From a virus, in IMG/VR virus record IMGVR_UViG_3300034200_001536, positions 1 to 64,000 of that record: DNA of 64,000 nucleotides; one strand, given 5' to 3'. Both the position numbers and the translations under genes were made by a program. The notes below the pieces were generated by a model, which saw only the letters and a list, made by a program, of their open reading frames with translations, had not been told where the DNA came from and did not search any database. Positions 3,635 to 64,000 of this stretch are shown here, piece after piece (positions within the stretch are counted from its first letter, which is position 1; every line of letters starts with the position of its first letter).

Positions 3635-6600
3635 ATGTTTAATCCCGATTCATTAAAAATACCGGCTACTCCTAATTTTCCTACCCATAAGGCAAAAGAT
3701 AAAATCTTTTTTCTTATGACTGAAGATAGAATGCCGCCAAAAAAATCTTTTTCTTTTTCTAAAAGAACTCCAACAATTCAAGCTGATACGGAATTAATTG
3801 TCTTAGAACATGGTATTGGCGATGACGCAAAGTGGGCTAAAATAAAATATAATGATAATAAAATAGGTTATGTTTTTATTAGCGGAATTGAACCATTAGA
3901 AAAAACAAAGCCGTTTTTTCCACTAAATACTCAACCAGAAAATCAACCTAATCCCTCTGCAAAAGAAATTGATTGGACTACTCAACAACCAATGACCGTT
4001 TATGAAGATGAAAAAAACGGTGCTTATGTGGTACATTATGAATTAGTTGACGTTACAGGCTATAAAGATGATACCGAATTGCTTGGGTATATGTATCAAG
4101 CGAGAACAGAAGGTACAAAATTAATATTAGAGCATTATGGAAAGAGCGCGGATTATTCAATTCTTAATAATTTATTAGATAAATATTATTCTTTTTCTAG
4201 TGCTGAAGAATATACAATAAATCTAAGGCCTTGTTCTTCCTTAAGAGTATTAGTGGCAATACCAAAAAGATATTTAAATGCTAATTCGCCAGATTTAGTT
4301 TCTAATTCTCAACAATCACAGCCAGAGCCAAGTAGTGTAAAGGGGCCAGAAAAATTACCAGAAGATTCTTATTTTACTAGAACTTTTAAAGATTATGCAG
4401 AATATGAAGACTATTTTAATAAATTAATTGAAATATTAAATCATTATGATATTACGATGAAAACCAGATTATGGTCTATCGAACCAGACACCGTATCTGT
4501 TAATTTGAGCGATGAAGCAAATAAGATAAAAATGCTTCACGATTCAATAAATGAATTGATAAAGAAAAATTATCCACAAAACATAATAGAAGATAGGCCA
4601 GATATTTTTAGTAAACCAAGAGAAAGATGGCAGTATTCTCTTGATTTAGTTATAGATAAGAAAAACATTAGTTTAGCAACCATAAAATATTATAATCAAA
4701 ACATAAGATTAAATTTAACAAATGGTATAACTAATTTTCTAAATTCAGAAGAAGTTAAAAACAAAACTTCTATAAATTATCTTATCACTTTTGATTCTAA
4801 AACTGACTCTAGAGATGCCCTAAAAGAAGCATTAAAAAATGCTGCCACAGCAGCACAGGCAGGAGTAATTGCAGGCGCAACCGGTGTTGCTACTACCGCT
4901 TTAGCTGGTTTTGGAATTGGTTTATTAGGCGGAAATCCAGAGGAAGAAATAAAGAAGTTTTTAATTTCTAAACATTATCCTTTTATAACTAATATAAGCC
5001 CGCAACCAGTAGATTTATACAATTGTACCGTTGATACACTTACAAGAATAAAAGATTTAGCTTCTGTTAAGGTACCAAACGAAATTAAAAAATATGAACT
5101 ATTAAACAAAAAGTACGAAGCTGCACAAAAGAAAAAAGAAGCAGATTTATTTATTCGTTCTTTAACTGACTTAACTCAAGTTAAAGATAAAAATTTCCGT
5201 ATTTTATTTGGAATCGATAAACCAAAAGGTGATGCAAAACAGCAATTAAATGCTTATATAGCCGTAGCAAAATCTTTAGATTGGGCAAGATTTATAGGGC
5301 TTGCAACACAATGTCTATCTAAATCATTACCACCAGAAATTATAGCTGAACTTCTAAAAAAATATCAAGAAGCAAGAAAATATTTAGAACAAATGTTTTT
5401 AGCTACTGTCTGTAATCCGTATCTGAAAAATGGGTTAAAAATAATTAACGGCTTTGAATTACCTACTTTGCCAACGTATAATCCTAATCAATCCTTAGCA
5501 GACGAAATTGAGAGAGCAGTAATAAAACTACTTAACGATTTAATAGCAGAGGGAATTAAGAAAGCCTTAGAAGCAGCATCAAAGGCGTGCTTAAATGACC
5601 CAACTGCCAATTTTAATAATAATTTACCTTTTACTAACCCAATTGACCAAGCAGCTAATATAAATGACCCTGCTTTAAATGATTTATTGGATGACTTTTA
5701 TGGAAGTTTAAAGAATGGCACTGGCCCATTGAGTGAAACGGATAAGAATGCTGCTAAAGAAAAATTAAATAGTCTTATTGCTGATATAACTTCTTGCTTA
5801 ACGCTAGCAGAAATTTGCAAATTATATAAGGGCGAAAGTTTAAATGATGAAGTTTATCAAATTATTATCTCTTTAGTAAAAAGAAAGTATGGCTCTCCAT
5901 TCACTGAAAAATTTAATAATAGAGAATATATTAATTATTTCTTTAGAACCCTAGGAAGTAGATTAGACTTATCGGTATGCCCTGATGTAATCGCTGGTGA
6001 AGGACCAATTGGAACTGCTAATATTCTTTGTGACGATGGACGAGTACAAAATTTAAGAAAAGATATACTTTCCAATAAAGGTTTGTCTCCAGAGATGATA
6101 GACTCCTTATTAGAGGACATTAGGAAAAAAGAAACAAAAAATCTTGAAGATGTATTGAAAATTTTGAATTCTGACAATCCTTTTGATTTTTCTTCTGCTC
6201 CCGATTTAGGCTGTAAGGTATTTCCCAACGGCGAAACAATTGGACCTTCAGCAGACAGCTTTAACCAGATGCTAAACACTATGTTTGGTAGTGTATATAA
6301 TACGTTTGATAGAGAGGCAGAAGAATGGTATAAAACAACTTATTCTATTAAAAATGGCTCAAAACCAAACTTTTTAGAATTTGTTAACGGCGAGATAAGG
6401 CCAAAAGAAAATATTATTATCCCATCAGAACAAGGGGATGCCGTTAGGGCAAATTCTGGAAAAGACACACCAGAAAAACAAGAAGAAAATTCAAATAAAT
6501 CAACTGGCGCTGGTTCTGATGAAGTAAAGTTACCTTCTTATATGTTTAAAGATGCTTTGAGCGTAAGAAGAGAGGCGGTACTTAATTATTTAGTAATCGA

Positions 6601-28003: not shown

Positions 28004-28032
28004 TTTGATACTATTTATAGAAAAGTATCAAA
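28004..28032 (+). promoter_or_regulatory. late promoter ACTATTTATA within a 9-bp inverted repeat
   Basis: TTTGATACT-N11-AGTATCAAA. Confidence 0.6.
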
Positions 28033-54988: not shown

Positions 54989-55245
54989 TAACTTTTATAT
55001 TAGCTTGTTATGGCATGACAATGATAGTTGTATATGGAAAAATATTTGAACCTATTAGACCAAATCACTACTTCTTTCGCTGCACAATGTGTATGGGATT
55101 TTGGATAGGATTATTTAATTGTTTTATGATTGAATTGCCCTTTAACGCTTTTACATCTGGCTGTATAAGTGCAGGAACATCTTATTTTTTAAGCCGCCTT
55201 GTTGATGATGATGGTATACTAATAAAATTGAAGAAAAGCAATTAA
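54979..55245 (+). CDS. small membrane protein with CxxC (DUF1360-like)
   Basis: Hydrophobic helices and FRCTMCMGFWIG. Confidence 0.6.
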   Translation: MQLITFILACYGMTMIVVYGKIFEPIRPNHYFFRCTMCMGFWIGLFNCFMIELPFNAFTSGCISAGTSYFLSRLVDDDGILIKLKKSN

Positions 55246-55249
55246 AACG

Positions 55250-55258
55250 ACTATTTAT
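55250..55258 (+). promoter_or_regulatory. putative late promoter ACTATTTAT
   Basis: Recurrent motif followed by GGAGGTG RBS. Confidence 0.65.
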
Positions 55259-55279
55259 AATTGATTGGAGGTGTTGCTT

Positions 55280-55351
55280 ATGAGAGAACAGATTATTTAC
55301 ACAAGACGTTACTTATTGCAACCCGTTAGACGTTGCTGCAACGGTAGCTGA
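55280..55351 (+). CDS. 23-aa peptide MREQIIYTRRYLLQPVRRCCNGS (not in ORF track)
   Basis: Strong RBS GGAGGTG at correct spacing, upstream promoter motif and downstream hairpin. Confidence 0.6.
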   Translation: MREQIIYTRRYLLQPVRRCCNGS

Positions 55352-55355
55352 ATTT

Positions 55356-55381
55356 AGCCCCGATGAAATATTCGGGGCTTT
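55356..55381 (+). terminator. GC-rich hairpin, weak terminator or processing site
   Basis: AGCCCCGA-tgaaatat-TCGGGGCT followed by a short T run. Confidence 0.55.
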
Positions 55382-55398
55382 AACCTTTATACAAAACT

Positions 55399-56010
55399 AT
55401 GTCAAAAGAATTACTTAGAGAATGGTACGAATTATGCGAAGGTGGCGTTTGTCAAGACTTATTGACAGAGGCTGAGAAACTTCATGTTAAAAACGGTGGA
55501 TTGATGCTTACGGGTGTCATGCAAAGAGCCGATAAAGAAAACGGTAATGGTCGTGTTTACGGCAAAACTATTTTAGAACGTGAAATAGAAAATTATAAAA
55601 AGCTTGTTGAAGACCGTAGGGCTTTAGGCGAATTAGACCATCCAGAAGATTCCGTAGTTAATCTTAAAAATGTTTCACATATGGTTACAGGTATTTGGTG
55701 GGATGGCGATGCAGTAATGGGAAAAGTTAAGGTTTTAGACACCCCATCAGGAAAAATTCTTCGTTCTCTAGTGGAAAGCGGCGTAAAACTTGGTATTTCT
55801 AGCCGTGGTTTAGGTAGCACACGTAAAGAAATGGGAAAAACCATTGTAGAAGATGATTTTCAGTTAATCTGCTTTGATTTCGTTCAAGAACCAAGCACTC
55901 CCGGCGCATTTATGATGAGTGAAGGCAAAAAACGCACTCTAGACCCAAAAGTTATTTGGTCAAAAGCTGACCGCTTAAACAGATTACTCAACGATATCGT
56001 AAAAGGATAA
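55399..56010 (+). CDS. gp21: prohead protease (T4 gp21-like)
   Basis: NGNGRVY, GELDHP, LGISSRGLGS, FDFVQEPS. Confidence 0.93.
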   Translation: MSKELLREWYELCEGGVCQDLLTEAEKLHVKNGGLMLTGVMQRADKENGNGRVYGKTILEREIENYKKLVEDRRALGELDHPEDSVVNLKNVSHMVTGIWWDGDAVMGKVKVLDTPSGKILRSLVESGVKLGISSRGLGSTRKEMGKTIVEDDFQLICFDFVQEPSTPGAFMMSEGKKRTLDPKVIWSKADRLNRLLNDIVKG

Positions 56011-56017
56011 AACTAAA

Positions 56018-56419
56018 ATGTCGGAATTTCAATATAAAGCAGGATTAAATCACGTTGGCAGCTATCAAATAAGTGGAATACCATATGTAACTGGCGGCTT
56101 AACAGCGCCAACCGGTTCTGGAACTCCTATTTCTATTGATTTTCCAAGTGTTACACAATTTATAACCGTTACAAATGGTTCTACAGTTGCTAGTAACGCC
56201 TATCTTAGAATTGGATATAGCTTAAGCGGTACTCAGGGAACAAACTATACTTTAGTTCCTCCAATGTCTTCTATAACTTATGAAGTAAGAGCAACAAAAT
56301 TATTTTTGCTAGGTAACACATCGGCAATTACAGGTCTAGTAAGCGTTGCAGCAGGACTCACAGGAATTACCGGTTATGATTTAGCAACTATTTATTCTGG
56401 CAGTAACGGAATCGGATAA
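56018..56419 (+). CDS. small virion protein
   Basis: GLNHVGSYQISGIPYVTG; S/T/G-rich beta protein. Confidence 0.65.
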   Translation: MSEFQYKAGLNHVGSYQISGIPYVTGGLTAPTGSGTPISIDFPSVTQFITVTNGSTVASNAYLRIGYSLSGTQGTNYTLVPPMSSITYEVRATKLFLLGNTSAITGLVSVAAGLTGITGYDLATIYSGSNGIG

Positions 56420-56427
56420 CATAAATA

Positions 56428-58293
56428 ATGAGTACCCTTATAGATTGCGCTGATACTTTAAATTGTGCTACGTTATCCGGAAGCGATAACGTTAATGTTG
56501 CTTTTCAGGCAGGCGTTCCAAATAAAATTGTTGTTTCTTTATCACAATCAGTTGTTGGATTATCTAAATTAGAAGTTACCGGAAATGCGATTATATCTAA
56601 TAATAGTTCTAATGCGGCACTCCGTATAACACAAACAGGAGCCGGCGAAGCCATACGTGTTGAAGATAGTGCTAATCCCGATAGCACACCATTTGTTGTA
56701 AGTTCCGTTGGTAATGTTGGTATTGGTACATCATCTCCAAGTGAAAAACTAGAGGTTAGCAATCCAACGGACTATTGTGCAATTCGCGTATCAGCAAACC
56801 CAACTGTCAACACGGCTAATGAAGCACAAGTTCATCTTAATAGTGGCTTAAACGGTTATACAAGACTTTTTTATCGTGAATCAGATAAAGCTTTTGGTAT
56901 TTACCATAGTGGTACCGCAGGTCCAGCAACAAAGTTCCGTATTAATGACAGTGGTATGTCGCTTATGGAAGGAGGCGGAAATGTTGGTGTTGGTGTTCAA
57001 TCACCGGCACAAAAATTAGATATTCGTGGTGGGACAGAAGTAAATGCTCAAGTGTATGCTGATAGTGCTGGTGCAACAAGAGCAGATTTGCGTTTACGTG
57101 TTAATAATACCACTGGTGACAACTATATTACTTTTGGTGATTCAACTGCTTTTGATGTAGGAAGAATACAATATAATCATAATTCTGATTATATGGCCTT
57201 TTATGTTAATTCATCAGAAGATATGAGAATTACATCAAATGGGAATGTTGGTATTGGAACAGCTACTCCTCAAAGCATACTACACATAGAAGCAAATGGT
57301 TATACAAATCAAACTATAAGAAGTGCAGGTGCCTTCGCTGGTTCATATATATTAGCTCAACGGTCTAAGGGCACTTTAGAATCTAAAACCGCTTTAGGAA
57401 TCGATGATTACGCTGGTGGTTTGTTGTTTTCTGGATATGATGGAACTAATTTTATAAATCTTGCCGGTGTGTATGGAATAGTTAATGGAACTCCCGGCAC
57501 TAATGATATGCCGGGTGCTTTAGCATTTTCTACTACAGCCGATGGAAGTAGTACGATTACTGAAAGAATGAGAATTGACAATACGGGTAGTGTTGGTATT
57601 GGAACTGCAACCCCATCCACGAAGTTGCATGTTAGAGGCGATGTATCTGTTGAAGACACAAATCCAACTGTATCTTTTAAAAACACTTCTGGTAATCAAA
57701 TAGGCTCTTTGGCGCACAATGGCTCTGGTGGCCGTATGGATTTAATAAATGAAGAAGCTAATTTATTAAGACTTGGAACTAACGGAGGGCCATTAGTATA
57801 TATTGCTTCTTCTAACGTTGGTATAAATATTGATACGCCAACTCAAACATTAGATATTAATGGAACTTTAAGAATTAGAAACTTAGTAGCAGGTACCAAT
57901 ACTGCTCCCGGTAGAGCGGCCACTGGTGAAATAACAGCTTTAAGTTCCGATAAAAGATTAAAAAAAGATATTTCAATTCTTTCTGATTCTCTTAATAAAG
58001 TTAAAAATTTAAGAGGTGTTACATTTAAATGGGATAAAACAAATGAACCTGACTTCATTATCGACGATTCAGAAAAAGAAAAAGAACAAATTGGTTTAAT
58101 AGCGCAAGAAGTGGAAGCAGTATATCCACAATTAGTTTATTTAAATGGCGTTAAAGATTATAAAGGTGTAAGATACCCAGAACTTACTGCTGTATTAATT
58201 GAGGCTGTTAAAGAATTATCGTCACTTAACGATGAATTAAAACAAAAATTAGATGATGTAATGACAAGAATATCTGCTTTAGAAAATAAATAG
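56428..58293 (+). CDS. fibre protein with C-terminal intramolecular chaperone (peptidase S74)
   Basis: Repeated GNVGIGTxxP..KL units; SSDKRLKKDI, GVTFKW, IGLIAQEVE, LIEAVKEL. Confidence 0.88.
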   Translation: MSTLIDCADTLNCATLSGSDNVNVAFQAGVPNKIVVSLSQSVVGLSKLEVTGNAIISNNSSNAALRITQTGAGEAIRVEDSANPDSTPFVVSSVGNVGIGTSSPSEKLEVSNPTDYCAIRVSANPTVNTANEAQVHLNSGLNGYTRLFYRESDKAFGIYHSGTAGPATKFRINDSGMSLMEGGGNVGVGVQSPAQKLDIRGGTEVNAQVYADSAGATRADLRLRVNNTTGDNYITFGDSTAFDVGRIQYNHNSDYMAFYVNSSEDMRITSNGNVGIGTATPQSILHIEANGYTNQTIRSAGAFAGSYILAQRSKGTLESKTALGIDDYAGGLLFSGYDGTNFINLAGVYGIVNGTPGTNDMPGALAFSTTADGSSTITERMRIDNTGSVGIGTATPSTKLHVRGDVSVEDTNPTVSFKNTSGNQIGSLAHNGSGGRMDLINEEANLLRLGTNGGPLVYIASSNVGINIDTPTQTLDINGTLRIRNLVAGTNTAPGRAATGEITALSSDKRLKKDISILSDSLNKVKNLRGVTFKWDKTNEPDFIIDDSEKEKEQIGLIAQEVEAVYPQLVYLNGVKDYKGVRYPELTAVLIEAVKELSSLNDELKQKLDDVMTRISALENK

Positions 58294-58298
58294 ATATC

Positions 58299-58427
58299 AT
58301 GAAAATTTTAACAACCGTAACAGCATCAGCGGGTTTAGACGTATCTTCGACTAATACGGATACTATAAAATTAGGTAGTTCTAATACAAATTATCAAAAT
58401 TCATTAAACAATAACATTTCTTCATAA
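58299..58427 (+). pseudogene. 42-aa ORF, probable truncated fibre-family paralogue
   Basis: MKILTTVTASAGLDV resembles LKILTVLTASQ (34029) and IKVLSNLTASQ (36443). Confidence 0.4.
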
Positions 58428-58433
58428 TAGAAT

Positions 58434-58442
58434 ACTATATAT
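58434..58442 (+). promoter_or_regulatory. putative late promoter variant ACTATATAT
   Basis: One mismatch to the motif; GAGGA RBS downstream. Confidence 0.45.
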
Positions 58443-58455
58443 ATCGTGAGGATAT

Positions 58456-58845
58456 ATGAAAAAAGAACAACTAAAACAAATTATAAAACCATTAATAAAA
58501 GAATGCCTTATGGAAGTTCTTGTAGAAGAAGGTTTTACAAAAATGTTATCAGAGTCTATTAAACAGCCAACTATAGTTCAACAAACAAGAACAATAGAAA
58601 AAGATATAAATCAACAGTCTGTAACACAAAAAAAATCAATAACAGAATTACAAGAAGCAAAGAAAAAAATGTTAGATGCAATAGGTAATTCTGGCTTTGA
58701 TGTCTTTGCCGGTACTCAACCGTTAAAAGAAGACCAAGAGATTGTTAATAGCGACCCCGGTATAGATATTAGCAAATTATTAGAAAATAAACAAGTTTGG
58801 AAACAAACATTAAATGCCATGAATGGCAAGAAAGTAAAAGAGTAA
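58456..58845 (+). CDS. hypothetical head-module protein with LKQIIK leader
   Basis: MKKEQLKQIIKPLIKECLMEVLVEE. Confidence 0.7.
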   Translation: MKKEQLKQIIKPLIKECLMEVLVEEGFTKMLSESIKQPTIVQQTRTIEKDINQQSVTQKKSITELQEAKKKMLDAIGNSGFDVFAGTQPLKEDQEIVNSDPGIDISKLLENKQVWKQTLNAMNGKKVKE

Positions 58846-58848
58846 CAA

Positions 58849-59154
58849 ATGAGTAAGCGTCCTGTAAATTTAGAAACAAGATTACCAAAAGGTTTACAAC
58901 CATCATTAGAAAATAATGAATTATTGATTAATAGATTTTTAAAAGCTTGCAGCAAAGAATCCCTAACACAGTATCTTTATGATTATTCTGCTTATACAAG
59001 ACGATTTGACAAGCCCAGCGTATTAGAACGTCAACGTCAATTACAATATAAGCGTAATGCTAAAAAAGCAAATCAATTATTGATGACTGACCCTGAAGTT
59101 TCCACAAAAAAGAAAAAGAAAAAGCCTGCTAAACGTGCAGAATCAGCACAATAA
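58849..59154 (+). CDS. rpsU: phage-encoded ribosomal protein bS21 homologue (divergent)
   Basis: ELLINRFLKACSKESL...RRFDKPSVLERQRQ aligns by eye with bS21 ALRRFKR.C.K.G....RE.YEKPS..RK.K; basic C-terminus; adjacent to scaffold and capsid genes. Confidence 0.7.
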   Translation: MSKRPVNLETRLPKGLQPSLENNELLINRFLKACSKESLTQYLYDYSAYTRRFDKPSVLERQRQLQYKRNAKKANQLLMTDPEVSTKKKKKKPAKRAESAQ

Positions 59155-59170
59155 TTGTCATTTCAGTGCA

Positions 59171-59199
59171 ATTAATACTAATTAAGTAAAAGTATTAAT
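59171..59199 (+). promoter_or_regulatory. late promoter ACTAATTAA within a 9-bp inverted repeat
   Basis: ATTAATACT-N11-AGTATTAAT. Confidence 0.6.
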
Positions 59200-59225
59200 C
59201 TTTTTCCTGCATACAGGAGATATTC

Positions 59226-60575
59226 ATGTCAGATTTGTTACAACAAGCGATGATTGATGCTGCCGCTTTAAAAGAAGCAGCCATTAAGAATGCCGAAAAC
59301 GCATTGATTGAAAAATATTCTCAAGAATTCAATCAAACAGTACAAAAATTATTAGAACAAGAAGTAGCGACAGCCCCAGAAGCTGCAGCTGCTTCTTCTC
59401 CATCTCCAGAAACTATGCAAACAGCCGGTATGTCTGATGCAGAACCTTCTTTAGACCCATCTACATTAGACCCAATGGCTGGCGGCTTAGAAACAGCAGG
59501 AGATATTGGCAAAAAGGATGCATTTTCTAAAGTCCCCGGTGCTTTTTCCAATATTTCTGATGATGAAATGATTACAATTAACTTTGACCAAATACGTGCA
59601 ACATTAAATGAAATGTTGGGTTATCAAACAAATCAAGACCCAACATCAGACGCTTTAGCACAAGGTAAGGCGCCTATTAATGTAACCGAAGAAGAAATTT
59701 CTTCACCTTCTAAAGTAAAAGTGAAAGTTGTTGGTGAAAAAGAATCAGAAGAAGAAAAAGAAGAAGAAAAAGAAGAAGAAGAAATGGAAGAATTGGAACT
59801 TGAAGAAGCAGAATTAGCTTCTCCTGAAGTTGTATCTGCCGAAAGAGAATTAGCTGATAAACAAGCTGCTGTTGCTAGTGCACAAAAGAAAATAGGTGAC
59901 GCTAAAGTTAAAGCTGCCGAAGAAGCTGCTCGTAAAGCTAAAGAAGCTGCTACAACAGCCACCCCTTCTTCTCTAGGAGAAGATATTGAATTGACCGAAG
60001 AAGAACTTCAAGAACTAGCTGAAGAATTAAAGGTTGATTTAAAGGTTGGTAACTTAAGCGACGGTTATCTCGGTTCCACAGAAACACAAAAACGTGAACA
60101 GCGTAATGTTGAGTTAGCAGCTGCACGTGATGAAGCGGCAGCAAAAGAACGCGAAGCAGAAATGCAAAAAATGAAAGACTTGATGCAAGAAAACGTAAAG
60201 TATAAAGATTTAAATAGTGAATTATTAAATGCAGTAGAATCATTAAAAGAACAAATGGAAAAAATTAATCTTTCTAATGCAAAATTATTATACACAAACA
60301 AAGCTCTAGGAAATATCTCCTTGAATGAGCGACAAAAACAAAATATTGTCGAATCAATTTCCAAAGCAGATAGTGTATTAGCGGCGAAGACAATCTATGA
60401 AACACTTCAAAATGCGGTTGATAGTGTAGCTAAAGAAAAAGAAGCTCCACAATCACTCCGCGAAGCATTAAATAGAGCACCTTCTCCATTCGTAGTAAAG
60501 AAGTCCTCTGCTAATAATATTAATGACTTAATGGCAGAAAGAATGAAAGCCCTAGCGGGTATCAAAAAACAATAA
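59226..60575 (+). CDS. gp22: prohead core scaffolding protein (T4 gp22-like)
   Basis: Acidic coiled coil directly before the MCP; NLSNAKLLY; C-terminal RMKALAGIK; many LxE sites. Confidence 0.8.
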   Translation: MSDLLQQAMIDAAALKEAAIKNAENALIEKYSQEFNQTVQKLLEQEVATAPEAAAASSPSPETMQTAGMSDAEPSLDPSTLDPMAGGLETAGDIGKKDAFSKVPGAFSNISDDEMITINFDQIRATLNEMLGYQTNQDPTSDALAQGKAPINVTEEEISSPSKVKVKVVGEKESEEEKEEEKEEEEMEELELEEAELASPEVVSAERELADKQAAVASAQKKIGDAKVKAAEEAARKAKEAATTATPSSLGEDIELTEEELQELAEELKVDLKVGNLSDGYLGSTETQKREQRNVELAAARDEAAAKEREAEMQKMKDLMQENVKYKDLNSELLNAVESLKEQMEKINLSNAKLLYTNKALGNISLNERQKQNIVESISKADSVLAAKTIYETLQNAVDSVAKEKEAPQSLREALNRAPSPFVVKKSSANNINDLMAERMKALAGIKKQ

Positions 60576-60595
60576 CTATCTTAAGGAGATATAAA

Positions 60596-62365
60596 ATGAG
60601 TAACATCTTGGAACGCCTCACAGAAGGCGTAGTAGAAAAAAACATGTTAAATGAAACAAAGGCAGTAGTAGGTAAGTGGGAAAAGTCTGGTCTTTTGGAA
60701 GGTTTAAAGACAGACCGTGAACGCAGCACCATGGCAGTATTATTAGAAAACCAAGCAAAAGAACTTCTCCGCGAATCAACCACAATGGCAGGAGGTGATG
60801 TTCAAGGTTTCGCAGCTGTAGCTTTCCCAATCGTACGCAGAGTATTCGCTGGCTTAATTGCTAACGACCTCGTATCTGTACAACCAATGAGCTTACCAAG
60901 CGGTCTTGTATTCTTCATGGATTTCCGTCGTGGTACAAACATTGGTAGCACTGGTGACACCGTATTCGCAGTATCTTCTTCACTATTCGGCGACCGTCTT
61001 GGTGTACAAATCACTGGCGGCGTTCGTGTAGACGGCGTAGATAATGCTGAAAAGGGTTTCTACAATCTTGCTAACGGCTATAACACATCACGCTACAGCA
61101 GCGGTGTAGCAACTGGTAGCGTAACATTACAAGCTGGTCCAATGAACTTGCAAGACGCTGGCGCAAACGCTTCAGCCACTGACTTGTCAGCTATTCGCTA
61201 TGATGCGGATTTATTATCCGACCCAGCATACGTATCAGCTTCCGTACTTAAGATTCCACTTGCTAGCTTGGATTATGGCACTCTATTAGCAGTACAAGAC
61301 GTATTTGCTACATCACTTGTAACAAGCAGCGCAGACGTAAACGCAGCTGGTGATTATACAGGCGGCGGCGCATTAGGTGCCGGTGCAAAAGTTATTCGTC
61401 GTTTGAGCAGCATCTCTGGTTCACACTTGTTATTAGCTGTAGCTACACCAAGCACAAGTCCAACAGTAGCAAACTTGTTCTCTGGTGCTAACTTTGCAGT
61501 TGTAACATATCCAATCAAGGATAATCTCACCAACGTAGGTACCGACGCTCTTGGTGCATTAGCCGGTGCAACACCTTGGACATTTGAAGGTTCTACTGCA
61601 ATTCCAGAAATCGAATTGAAGGTAGACAGCTTCTCCATCACTGCTCGCACACGTAAGCTCAAGGCTCAATGGACCCCAGAATTAGGTCAAGACTTGAACG
61701 CTTACCACAACTTGGACGCAGAAGTAGAATTAACCTCCATGTTATCTGAACAAATCGGTCTTGAAATCGACCAAGAAATTCTTAACGACTTAGTTAAGGG
61801 TGCAACAGCAGGTACCAAATATTGGAGCCGTCGTCCCGGTAAGTTCGTAAACCGTGCAACTGGCGCAGAAATCAATGCTGGTTCTCCAACATCACCACCA
61901 GACTTCACTGGTAACGTAAGCATGTGGTACGAAACACTCGTTGAAACAATCAACGATGTATCTGCCAACATTCACCGTAAGACATTACGCGGTGGTGCAA
62001 ACTTCCTCGTATGCTCACCAGAAGTTGCAAACATTCTTGAATTCACCAGCGGTTTCCGTGCATCTGTAACAAACGATGCAGAAAAGGGCACCGTAGGCGC
62101 AGTCAAGGTTGGCGATATGAACAAGAAGTGGGACGTTATCGTTCACCCATACTTCCTCCGTAACGTAATTCTCGTTGGCCGTAAGGGTGGCAGCTTCTTA
62201 GAAAGCGGTTACGTATATGCACCATACGTACCACTACAATCCACACCAACCATCTTCTCACCAACCGACTTTACACCACGTAAGGCTGTAATGACCCGTT
62301 ATGGTAAGGCAATGGTTCGTCCAGACATGTACGGTCTTGTAGTAGTAGAAGACCTCTTGGGCTAA
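60596..62365 (+). CDS. gp23: major capsid protein (T4 gp23-like)
   Basis: LLENQ, AFPIVRRVF, VSVQPMSLPSGLVF, TRKLKAQWTPELGQDLNAYH, YAPYVPL, MTRYG. Confidence 0.97.
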   Translation: MSNILERLTEGVVEKNMLNETKAVVGKWEKSGLLEGLKTDRERSTMAVLLENQAKELLRESTTMAGGDVQGFAAVAFPIVRRVFAGLIANDLVSVQPMSLPSGLVFFMDFRRGTNIGSTGDTVFAVSSSLFGDRLGVQITGGVRVDGVDNAEKGFYNLANGYNTSRYSSGVATGSVTLQAGPMNLQDAGANASATDLSAIRYDADLLSDPAYVSASVLKIPLASLDYGTLLAVQDVFATSLVTSSADVNAAGDYTGGGALGAGAKVIRRLSSISGSHLLLAVATPSTSPTVANLFSGANFAVVTYPIKDNLTNVGTDALGALAGATPWTFEGSTAIPEIELKVDSFSITARTRKLKAQWTPELGQDLNAYHNLDAEVELTSMLSEQIGLEIDQEILNDLVKGATAGTKYWSRRPGKFVNRATGAEINAGSPTSPPDFTGNVSMWYETLVETINDVSANIHRKTLRGGANFLVCSPEVANILEFTSGFRASVTNDAEKGTVGAVKVGDMNKKWDVIVHPYFLRNVILVGRKGGSFLESGYVYAPYVPLQSTPTIFSPTDFTPRKAVMTRYGKAMVRPDMYGLVVVEDLLG

Positions 62366-62373
62366 TAATTAAA

Positions 62374-62420
62374 AGAGGTTAAAATCTCTGCCCCGCTACT
62401 GAAAGGTAGCGGGGTTTTTT
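62374..62420 (+). terminator. intrinsic terminator preceded by a short hairpin
   Basis: CCCCGCTACT-GAAA-GGTAGCGGGG-T6; upstream AGAGGT/ATCTCT. Confidence 0.9.
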
Positions 62421-62446
62421 ATTTGTGAAGAAAGAAGATAATTACA

Positions 62447-62455
62447 ACTAATTAC
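62447..62455 (+). promoter_or_regulatory. putative late promoter ACTAATTAC
   Basis: Recurrent motif after the terminator; GAGGA RBS downstream. Confidence 0.6.
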
Positions 62456-62480
62456 TATACTATTTCCCGAGGAATAAAAG

Positions 62481-63785
62481 ATGGCACTTCCTAATTTTTC
62501 GCCTGCTTCGCAAATGAGTAAGGTGATATTACCACCAACTGGCAATGTCGCTAATGTAACTGTTACTAGTTTACCATTTGGTGTTTATGTATCAACAAAT
62601 TATTGGACAAATGAACAAATATCTTCTTATAAATCAGGTTCCGTAGAAGAAGTGGCGTTTGTTTATAAAAAGTTAGGCGGTGACGTAGTAGATATTGAAT
62701 TAGTTGAAACACAAGTTCATGCTGCTTATGAAGAAGCTTGTTTAGAATATTCATATCTTATCAATTTACATCAAGCAAAGAATGCTTTGCCATTTATTCT
62801 TGGACAAGATACAGGTTCGTTTAATAACGACGGACAATTAACGGGCAGCAATAGTGGAAGTTTATTAAATGCTAATCTTGCATTTCCAAAAATGCAATTT
62901 GTATATGCTAAAAACATTGGTATGGCAGTTAATACCTTAGTAGGCTTAAATGGTAATGAACCAATCTATTCTTCTTCTTTTAATATGGTTCCCGGTCAGC
63001 AAGATTATGATTTACAAGCAGCTGCTTCTGCTTCTGCCTTATCGGGCGGATGGGATTTAAACGATAAGCGCATTAATATACAAAAAGTTTATTATAAAAC
63101 CGCTGGTGCATCATGGAATTTTTATGGCTATTTCGGCGGTCTTAACGTTGTAGGTAACTTGTCAACATACGGTCAATATGCAGATGATAGCACATTTGAA
63201 ATTATTCCTGCATGGCAAAATAAATTACAAGCAATGGCGTATGAAGATGCAATTAAAACCCGTGTAAGCGATTGGTCATTCCAGATTCGTAATAACATGT
63301 TGAGAATATTTCCAGTTCCTAACGCATCTTCACCAGAAAAGTTTTGGTTTGATTTTACTGTTAGTTCAAATGCTTGGGAACAAACACCACAAACAGTGGG
63401 TATTAGCGGCTCTACAGCCCCAGCAGAAAGTGGAATCAATGGTATTAATAATATGAACACAATACCATTTCAAAACTTACCATATGATAAAATAAATAGC
63501 ATTGGTAAACAATGGATTCGTCGTTTTGCTTTAGCTTTATGCAAAGAAATGCTTGGTCAAATTCGTAGTAAGTGGGATAAAATTCCTATTCCCGGTGATT
63601 CAGTCGTTTTAAATGGCGATAAATTAATCAGTGAAGGTAAAGAAGAACAAGATAAACTTCGTGAAGAATTGAAAACACAACTTGCAGACATGACATATGT
63701 TAAGTTGGGAGAAGATAGCGCTAAAACAATGGAAGATGCTTCAAAAACACAAGCATATGTTCCAAATCTTATCTTTGTTGGTTAG
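62481..63785 (+). CDS. gp13: neck / head-tail adaptor protein (T4 gp13-like)
   Basis: KKLGGDVVDIEL...EEACLEY and WIRRFALALCKEMLGQIRSK..IPIPG..LNG. Confidence 0.8.
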   Translation: MALPNFSPASQMSKVILPPTGNVANVTVTSLPFGVYVSTNYWTNEQISSYKSGSVEEVAFVYKKLGGDVVDIELVETQVHAAYEEACLEYSYLINLHQAKNALPFILGQDTGSFNNDGQLTGSNSGSLLNANLAFPKMQFVYAKNIGMAVNTLVGLNGNEPIYSSSFNMVPGQQDYDLQAAASASALSGGWDLNDKRINIQKVYYKTAGASWNFYGYFGGLNVVGNLSTYGQYADDSTFEIIPAWQNKLQAMAYEDAIKTRVSDWSFQIRNNMLRIFPVPNASSPEKFWFDFTVSSNAWEQTPQTVGISGSTAPAESGINGINNMNTIPFQNLPYDKINSIGKQWIRRFALALCKEMLGQIRSKWDKIPIPGDSVVLNGDKLISEGKEEQDKLREELKTQLADMTYVKLGEDSAKTMEDASKTQAYVPNLIFVG

Positions 63786-63807
63786 TTTTGTCTTTGGAAT
63801 AATTTAA

Positions 63808-64000
63808 ATGGCACGTAAAAAGAAAACAAAAGCTAGTTTAGCTGAAAACATTGCTAGACAACCAGAAGCTCCTCCCCCGCCGTTATTTCTTGGCGAGAAG
63901 GAACGTAATCTTGTTAAGCAAGTAAATGATGAAATTATTGAGCGTGTTATTGGACAAACAGTTACCTACTATCCAATGAGCCGTGAACATACAAACTATC
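63808..64000 (+). CDS. gp14: head completion/neck protein (gp14-like), 5' part only
   Basis: MARKKK..PPPPLFLGEKERNLVKQVNDEIIERVIGQTVTYYP; follows gp13; runs off the window. Confidence 0.6.
   Translation, partial: MARKKKTKASLAENIARQPEAPPPPLFLGEKERNLVKQVNDEIIERVIGQTVTYYPMSREHTNY

Follow-up and report, generated by a model that had tools for sequence, protein, structure and literature searches.

A probable, strongly diverged homologue of ribosomal protein bS21 in the head module of T4-like lake phages

Ribosomal protein bS21 is the predominant ribosomal protein encoded by viruses and is nearly confined to aquatic phages (PMC6375957). Viral ribosomal proteins have been reported to be under purifying selection, and the bS21 of a pelagiphage enters E. 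coli 70S ribosomes (PMC6375957). Large Bacteroidota phages of lakes carry bS21 amid structural genes and express it highly together with them (PMC9723584). A phage bS21 gene near structural genes is of an already known kind. New here is a cryptic, strongly derived bS21 clade in a different T4-like lake phage lineage, which escapes all curated models and is connected to canonical S21 by a graded series of genes in one genomic slot. Also new are the co-orientation of its gene with the head genes and its probable translational coupling to the gene upstream. As this family shows, profile-based surveys undercount phage bS21: the clade belongs to abundant, transcriptionally active T4-like phages of lakes, and its version of bS21 is called "hypothetical" in public records.

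The window analyzed here is a stretch of 64,000 nucleotides taken from the start of a 103-kb virus record in IMG/VR (IMGVR_UViG_3300034200_001536), whose estimated completeness is 57%. The stretch is present in many lake-water metagenomes and in 12 lake metatranscriptome libraries.

The gene at 58849–59154 and its relationship to bS21

The gene occupies exactly the originally predicted positions, 58849–59154, on the + strand, runs from ATG to TAA, and encodes a 101-aa protein with a pI of 10.2. The core of the product (residues 29–63) reads RFLKACSKE...RRFDKPSVLERQR, and the translation also contains the YLYDYSAY stretch and the poly-Lys tail (KKKKKK, residues 87–92) that had been described together with this core. 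A large protein collection holds 71 homologues at 70–100% identity, all unnamed or "hypothetical" and none with a Pfam domain, and a scan of IMG/VR identified 44 viral loci that encode relatives of the protein. Comparison of the first 75 codons with 13 relatives gave dN/dS values of 0.06–0.13 at dS 0.5–1.7, demonstrating strong purifying selection. Given the 71 homologues, the 44 syntenic loci, and the low dN/dS, the ORF is a real gene, and a chance ORF is ruled out.

The window protein falls below every curated S21 model. An HMM search against Ribosomal_S21, proposed as a check alongside the original prediction, returned no PF01165 match in Pfam at E ≤ 1; NCBIfam gave no match at E ≤ 10 (rpsU models included), and PHROGs gave no S21. 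Neither phmmer nor profiles built from alignments of the close (A1) and wide (A2) families recovered an S21 among PDB chain sequences, the best PDB profile match being a YorR kinase-like protein at E 0.08, which was judged to be noise. A six-frame PF01165 scan of the whole 103-kb record was equally without a match, as was a tblastn search against 50,697 phage records. Searched against two gammaproteobacterial genomes at E ≤ 10, profile A2 missed the rpsU genes present there, since this profile alone is too derived.

Structure prediction, the second proposed check, yielded an all-helical AlphaFold model from 28 sequences (helices at residues 20–33, 36–45, 48–54, and 56–79; mean pLDDT 76). Foldseek against the PDB and VIA-align wide returned only generic long-helix matches for this free-monomer probe (Z ≤ 4.9), with no specific structural match. 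These matches speak neither for nor against bS21, which takes up its fold in contact with rRNA and is poorly probed by a model of the isolated monomer. The direct tests as a group are weak for a 60-residue, rRNA-bound protein. Failure to reach the cut-off of PF01165 or of the NCBIfam rpsU models is a measure of divergence and is separate from the question of homology. The absence of a profile or structural match had been named in advance as what would refute the bS21 assignment; for direct searches that absence is what was found, whereas homology emerged through Pfam-valid genes in the same slot and through profile–profile alignment.

The head-module proteins of the window were run by tblastn against the 44 related loci, where MCP (major capsid protein) identity declines from 91% to 53%. 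The order protease–p129–slot gene–(p133)–scaffold–MCP–p434 was found in all 44, the slot gene being the counterpart of the gene studied here. In the two most distant loci, the T4-like contigs L044 and L045, the slot gene (positions 5995–6213 and 5974–6219, respectively) is a canonical, Pfam-valid S21. These genes score 39.1 bits (E 6e-10) and 49.2 bits (E 4e-13) against PF01165, for which the gathering cut-off is 27, and they match solved bS21 chains with E-values down to 1e-8.

Profile searches connect this pair to the window family. Among 4167 six-frame ORFs, a close-family profile restricted to relatives sharing at least 64% identity with the window protein retrieved the slot genes of L044 and L045 at E 1.2e-8 and 9.9e-7, the next match being unrelated and at E 0.13. 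A profile of the wider, insertion-bearing family retrieved them at E 7.7e-11 and 1.1e-8. In the reverse direction, an HMM of 30 proteobacterial S21 proteins was searched against the same ORFs, and 13 of the 19 best matches were the slot gene, which accounts for only about 1% of this set.

Profile–profile alignment with hhalign, using 40 insertion-bearing family members as the query, gave P-values of 7e-5 to 8e-5 (probability 60% at P 8e-5) against proteobacterial S21 alone and 7e-8 (probability 94.6%) against S21 supplemented with the two Pfam-valid phage proteins. Query residues 20–74 align with residues 9–59 of the 71 in E. coli S21 over 51 columns with one 4-residue gap. In a control run, the real score of 30.4 compares with 11.9 for the reversed alignment and with an average of 10.7 and a maximum of 20.7 for 150 column shuffles.

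Scanning all 1.8 billion representatives with HMMER added intermediates (P0080, P0081, and P0082) that carry the same insertion. Their top Pfam match is PF01165 at sub-threshold E-values of 1e-2, 6e-5, and 2e-3, respectively, and it is the sole Pfam match for P0080 and P0081. P0081 bears the JGI name "ribosomal protein S21," and bS21 chains account for seven of its eight PDB matches at E ≤ 10; a homologue search with P0081 returned only the query itself. In a language-model search of the Atlas, the three nearest clusters are viral and carry PF01165 (scores of 0.85–0.88, 187–197 of 256 features shared), and all ten family-bearing neighbours agree on S21. This last line of evidence is independent of alignment and has the standing of a lead.

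Homology to bona fide S21 members can thus be demonstrated, and positional orthology, profile links, hhalign, and the language-model neighbourhood, all of them indirect lines of evidence, together make it very probable that the window protein is homologous to bS21, in agreement with the original assignment of a divergent phage bS21. The opposing explanation, that the protein is unrelated to bS21 and that its motifs reflect a chance resemblance between short, basic, helical proteins, draws on the lack of any direct profile, sequence, or fold match of the window protein. We regard it as very improbable against a continuous sequence series that reaches Pfam-valid S21 genes in the same genomic slot, an hhalign P of 7e-8 with far lower scores for the shuffled and reversed controls, the enrichment of the slot gene among S21-HMM matches, and nearest Atlas neighbours that are S21 clusters throughout.

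Alignment with canonical relatives bears out both the N-terminal extension and the internal insertion that had been claimed. Ahead of the canonical first strand, the whole lineage, including L044 and L045, carries an extra (K/R)P(I/V)N(V/L)E segment. Two insertions mark the window sub-lineage: 4 aa (about SAYT) immediately preceding RRFxKPS and, additional to the insertion first described, about 5 aa (GLQPS) between the first strand and helix 1. The Lys-rich C-terminal tail of this sub-lineage is variable in length. As a side observation, the N-terminal segment reads KP-I-N-V-E in the L044 and L045 genes and RPVNLE in the window protein and is absent from E. coli S21.

Around these additions the S21 core motifs are present, namely RF-x-[KR] in helix 1, the [FY]-x-K-P-[ST] loop, and a basic C-terminal helix; in the window protein they appear as RFLKACSK (residues 29–36) and RRFDKPSV (residues 51–58), followed by ERQRQLQYKRNAKK. 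Within the close family, F30, K32, C34, K55, and R61 do not vary, and across a wide alignment that includes E. coli S21, F30 and K36 are invariant. The fixed positions (F30, K32, C34, K36, K55-P56-S57, and R61) are hallmark positions of S21. Both insertions and the N-terminal extension fall in or adjoin the regions through which S21 packs against the 30S subunit, and 30S binding may therefore be changed or lost.

The head module and its transcription

The original prediction placed the gene directly upstream of scaffold and capsid genes, and the neighbourhood conforms to this description. A prohead core protease of the T4 gp21 type (55399–56010, + strand; PF03420, E 2.8e-30, and synteny) lies 2.8 kb upstream of the S21-like gene and is the upstream anchor of the conserved module. 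Downstream, 71 nt separate the S21-like gene from the gene for a 449-aa putative prohead scaffold (59226–60575, + strand), which is preceded by an AGGAG SD core and was assigned by position and by its coiled and acidic composition. This protein has no family match, and its position between the protease and capsid genes is conserved in the related loci. A T4 Gp23-type MCP follows (60596–62365, + strand; PF07068, E 4.8e-71).

Between the protease and the scaffold lies a gene for a 621-aa fibre-like protein (56428–58293, + strand), which carries a Peptidase_S74 intramolecular chaperone domain at its C-terminus (E 2.3e-16); otherwise syntenic relatives differ in whether they have this gene and in its sequence. 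The putative scaffold gene contains a low-complexity acidic repeat (EEKEEEKEEEE...) at 59712–59791, and the equivalent gene of a related Flavobacterium phage is annotated "DNA polymerase phi-like," a label that looks like a composition artefact. Beyond the capsid terminator, the gene for a 434-aa protein (p434; 62481–63785, + strand; PHROG 211 "head-tail adaptor Ad2," E 2.3e-11) is almost uncovered in RNA libraries that are deep over the capsid gene.

Immediately upstream of the S21-like gene lies the gene for a conserved 129-aa protein, p129 (58456–58845, + strand), recognized by synteny and preceded by a GAGGA SD core. It is directly upstream of the S21-type gene in 43 of the 44 loci, including L044 and L045; in the remaining locus (L043) only a short piece of p129 was matched. 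Searches of Pfam and PHROG with p129 gave no match, and the Atlas places it in viral hypothetical clusters only, with a low-confidence model (pLDDT 0.58). Because the p129 stop codon lies 3 nt before the start of the S21-like gene, the two genes are probably translationally coupled.

By eye, the N-terminus of p129 (MKKEQLKQIIKPLIKECLMEVLVEE...) contains several (L/I)xE motifs (IKE, LME, LVE, and LSE), the kind of motif cut by T4-type prohead proteases. Possible roles for p129 are as a core or cargo component of the prohead or as a partner with which the S21-like protein functions. The N-terminal part of the S21-like protein, inspected in the same way, is devoid of (L/I)xE, its VNLE and PSLE carrying Leu at P2 and not at P3.

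These observations bear on whether an S21-derived protein now acts away from the ribosome, either as a basic head-internal or core protein that is packaged and perhaps injected, or as an RNA-binding regulator of late mRNAs. In favor of such a role, the gene sits in the head module between protease and scaffold in 44 of 44 loci, and its partner p129 has an (L/I)xE-rich N-terminus like T4 capsid-targeting and cleavage sequences. The divergence of the protein below every S21 model and a Lys-rich tail suited to DNA binding point the same way, as does the OLE RNP, reported to be a partner of bS21 away from the ribosome (PMC12054373).

Location alone, however, does not imply a structural role, since canonical S21 fills the same slot in L044 and L045, and other phage bS21 genes are likewise found amid structural genes (PMC9723584). 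The S21-like protein also lacks both a good (L/I)xE site by eye and a leader of the MKxxxLKxIIKE type seen in p129, and its invariant residues F30, C34, K36, and K55-P56-S57 are those conserved in ribosomal S21. On balance, a role off the ribosome is unlikely, though it is the chief competitor of the ribosomal explanation.

Contigs of four RNA libraries were mapped onto 55000–63900. Contigs cover the S21-like gene at 100% identity and at a depth of 4–13; depth is 40–115 over the scaffold 3′ end and the capsid gene, 1–7 over the upstream fibre gene, and about 0–2 over the gene after the predicted terminator, these values coming from assembled contigs, from which strand, transcript ends, and true expression level are not readable. 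Such uneven depth points to RNA rather than carried-over DNA. One contig spans 58458–59711. The gene is embedded in the structural module and, at the contig level, co-transcribed with it. Every RNA contig breaks at 59712–59791, where the mapper skipped the repeat, and this break was rejected as a transcript boundary.

An intrinsic-terminator-like hairpin with 11 GC-rich pairs and a T run (62390–62415, + strand) closes the unit. Capsid contigs end just before it, at 62355–62377, in all four RNA libraries, and the capsid transcript probably ends here, within 62355–62415.

As for initiation of transcription, the window contains eight exact copies of ACTATTTAT (at 28010, 33942, 36793, 38129, 39722, 53750, 55250, and 56387), compared with about 1.7 per strand estimated from base composition; every one is on the + strand, and most closely precede the start of a gene. 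Copies with one mismatch occur at chance frequency overall (66 found, 65 expected). The motif is a candidate late promoter, of which only the eight exact copies look meaningful. A one-mismatch copy, ACTATATAT, lies at 58434–58442 (+ strand), 14 nt upstream of the p129 start, and one RNA contig starts nearby at 58458, a weak hint; this copy is compatible with a p129–S21 late transcription unit. A scan for sigma-70-type promoters gave background level, and a tRNA search of the window found none.

Shine–Dalgarno use, host, and proposed role

An SD core (GGAG, GAGG, or AGGA at −20 to −4) precedes 26 of the 51 predicted genes of the window, against 6% of random positions. Most genes that do not have one, the S21-like gene among them, abut or overlap the preceding gene, and the originally described pattern of SD use combined with coupling of internal genes is broadly right. 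The SD-core fraction is about 50% in all 44 related loci.

Judged by capsid protein, the nearest cultured phage is Flavobacterium phage immuto (MCP 49.6% identical), which differs on both counts: it has an SD core on one of 18 genes and no S21 slot gene. Its 75-aa and 30-aa genes between protease and scaffold were considered as S21 candidates and rejected as unrelated. The canonical slot genes of L044 and L045 find their best matches in gammaproteobacterial bS21 chains (38 and 28 bits) and match the bS21 of F. johnsoniae weakly (19.5 and 20.6 bits); among free-living bacterial bS21 chains, that of F. johnsoniae ranks last for L045 and mid-to-low for L044. A search of genome contigs with E. coli S21 returned only close Gammaproteobacteria. 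The SD cores on about half of the genes, the contrast with immuto, and the gammaproteobacterial type of the slot genes together suggest that the host is probably an SD-using, non-Bacteroidia lake bacterium.

This assessment makes the Bacteroidota context of anti-SD sequestration, invoked in the original prediction, probably irrelevant. Within that context the phage bS21 would be tuned to Bacteroidota ribosomes, where it would replace host bS21 and change anti-SD sequestration such that SD-bearing mRNAs are read in a host that otherwise ignores the SD. The infection of Flavobacterium by the nearest cultured phage (49.6% capsid identity) and the SD cores on the phage genes here would fit, and Bacteroidia ribosomes without bS21 are reported to gain SD recognition (PMC9976891). 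We nevertheless consider this scenario improbable: the Flavobacterium relative has no slot gene and an SD core on only one of 18 genes, whereas the 44 S21-bearing relatives have about 50%, the pattern of phages of SD-using hosts, and the slot genes are closest to gammaproteobacterial bS21 and weak against that of F. johnsoniae.

The best overall explanation, to which we assign a probability of roughly 0.6 including its ribosomal role, is a phage-borne, strongly diverged descendant of bS21. An ancestor of this freshwater T4-like lineage would have captured a gammaproteobacterial-type rpsU, which became fixed within the operon for head morphogenesis, directly behind the genes for the prohead protease and p129. 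The window sub-lineage would then have acquired the variable Lys-rich tail and two insertions, about 5 aa between strand 1 and helix 1 and 4 aa ahead of the (F/Y)xKPS loop, with the S21 core retained (helix 1 with RF..K.C.K, the RRFxKPS motif, and the basic C-terminal helix). With its gene transcribed alongside the late head genes and its translation probably coupled to that of p129, the protein would replace bS21 at its site on the host 30S subunit, beside the 3′ end of 16S rRNA. There it could alter start-site selection or SD/anti-SD use in favor of the abundant phage late mRNAs.

The present data show homology to bS21, a conserved gene order, purifying selection, and representation in RNA libraries; for ribosome incorporation and an effect on initiation we infer the outcome by analogy. 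The functional step, a late exchange at the bS21 site that biases initiation toward phage late mRNAs, seems to us somewhat favored, and such retuning agrees with published hypotheses for phage bS21 (PMC6375957, PMC9723584).

A more specialized possibility, which we hold to be doubtful, assigns the function to the insertions and the N-terminal extension themselves. They might make this bS21 a phage-specific initiation switch that, after exchange into host 30S subunits, changes the presentation of the 16S 3′ tail so that phage late mRNAs with AAGGA/AGGAG leaders outcompete host mRNAs, perhaps jointly with the always-adjacent p129. Alternatively, the head might carry the protein and deliver it along with the DNA, in which case ribosomes would be altered from the first minute of infection.

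The graded series in one slot is a set of natural variants bearing on which parts of bS21 can change with function kept or redirected. In practical terms, it improves annotation and supplies defined proteins for assays of ribosome incorporation and for reporter assays.

Comparison with known bS21 systems

In its architecture the window protein resembles bacterial bS21 (RpsU, PF01165), with which it shares a short N-terminal strand, helix 1 with RF-x-[KR]-x-C-x-K, helix 2, the [FY]-x-K-P-[ST] loop, and a long basic C-terminal helix; both are small and basic. Bacterial bS21 proteins measure about 55–75 aa, whereas the window protein extends to 101 aa through its N-terminal extension, two insertions, and Lys-rich tail. 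It also differs in scoring below all curated models and in being encoded by a phage within a head-assembly operon.

Francisella bS21 paralogues offer a parallel in concept only, as alternative bS21 proteins reported to change which mRNAs initiate (PMC9578407, PMC13374519). Those paralogues are chromosomal and bacterial, and the gene described here is phage-borne.

Among phages, the bS21 genes of Pelagibacter phage HTVC008M and of the cultured Mosig, Melnitz, and PA5oct group are similar in belonging to aquatic T4-like phages or large myoviruses, and their products are presumed to exchange into host 30S subunits. Unlike the window protein, these proteins are found by BLAST with E. coli S21 and are annotated as S21. 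The HTVC008M gene lies among auxiliary and replication genes and not, as here, in the head module. Ribosome incorporation has experimental proof for the pelagiphage protein and is proposed for the window protein.

A parallel in genomic setting is provided by the freshwater Bacteroidota phages of about 300 kb (Chen et al. 2022, PMC9723584), which are likewise lake phages with bS21 amid terminase, portal, prohead protease, and capsid genes, transcribed with the structural genes late in infection. Their bS21 gene lies on the strand opposite to the structural genes, whereas the window gene is co-oriented with them and probably coupled to p129. Their bS21 is Bacteroidota-like, with a predicted Bacteroidota host, in contrast to the gammaproteobacterial appearance of the canonical members of the window lineage. 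Their genomes span 293–331 kb, and the window phage is known from a 103-kb record estimated to be 57% complete.
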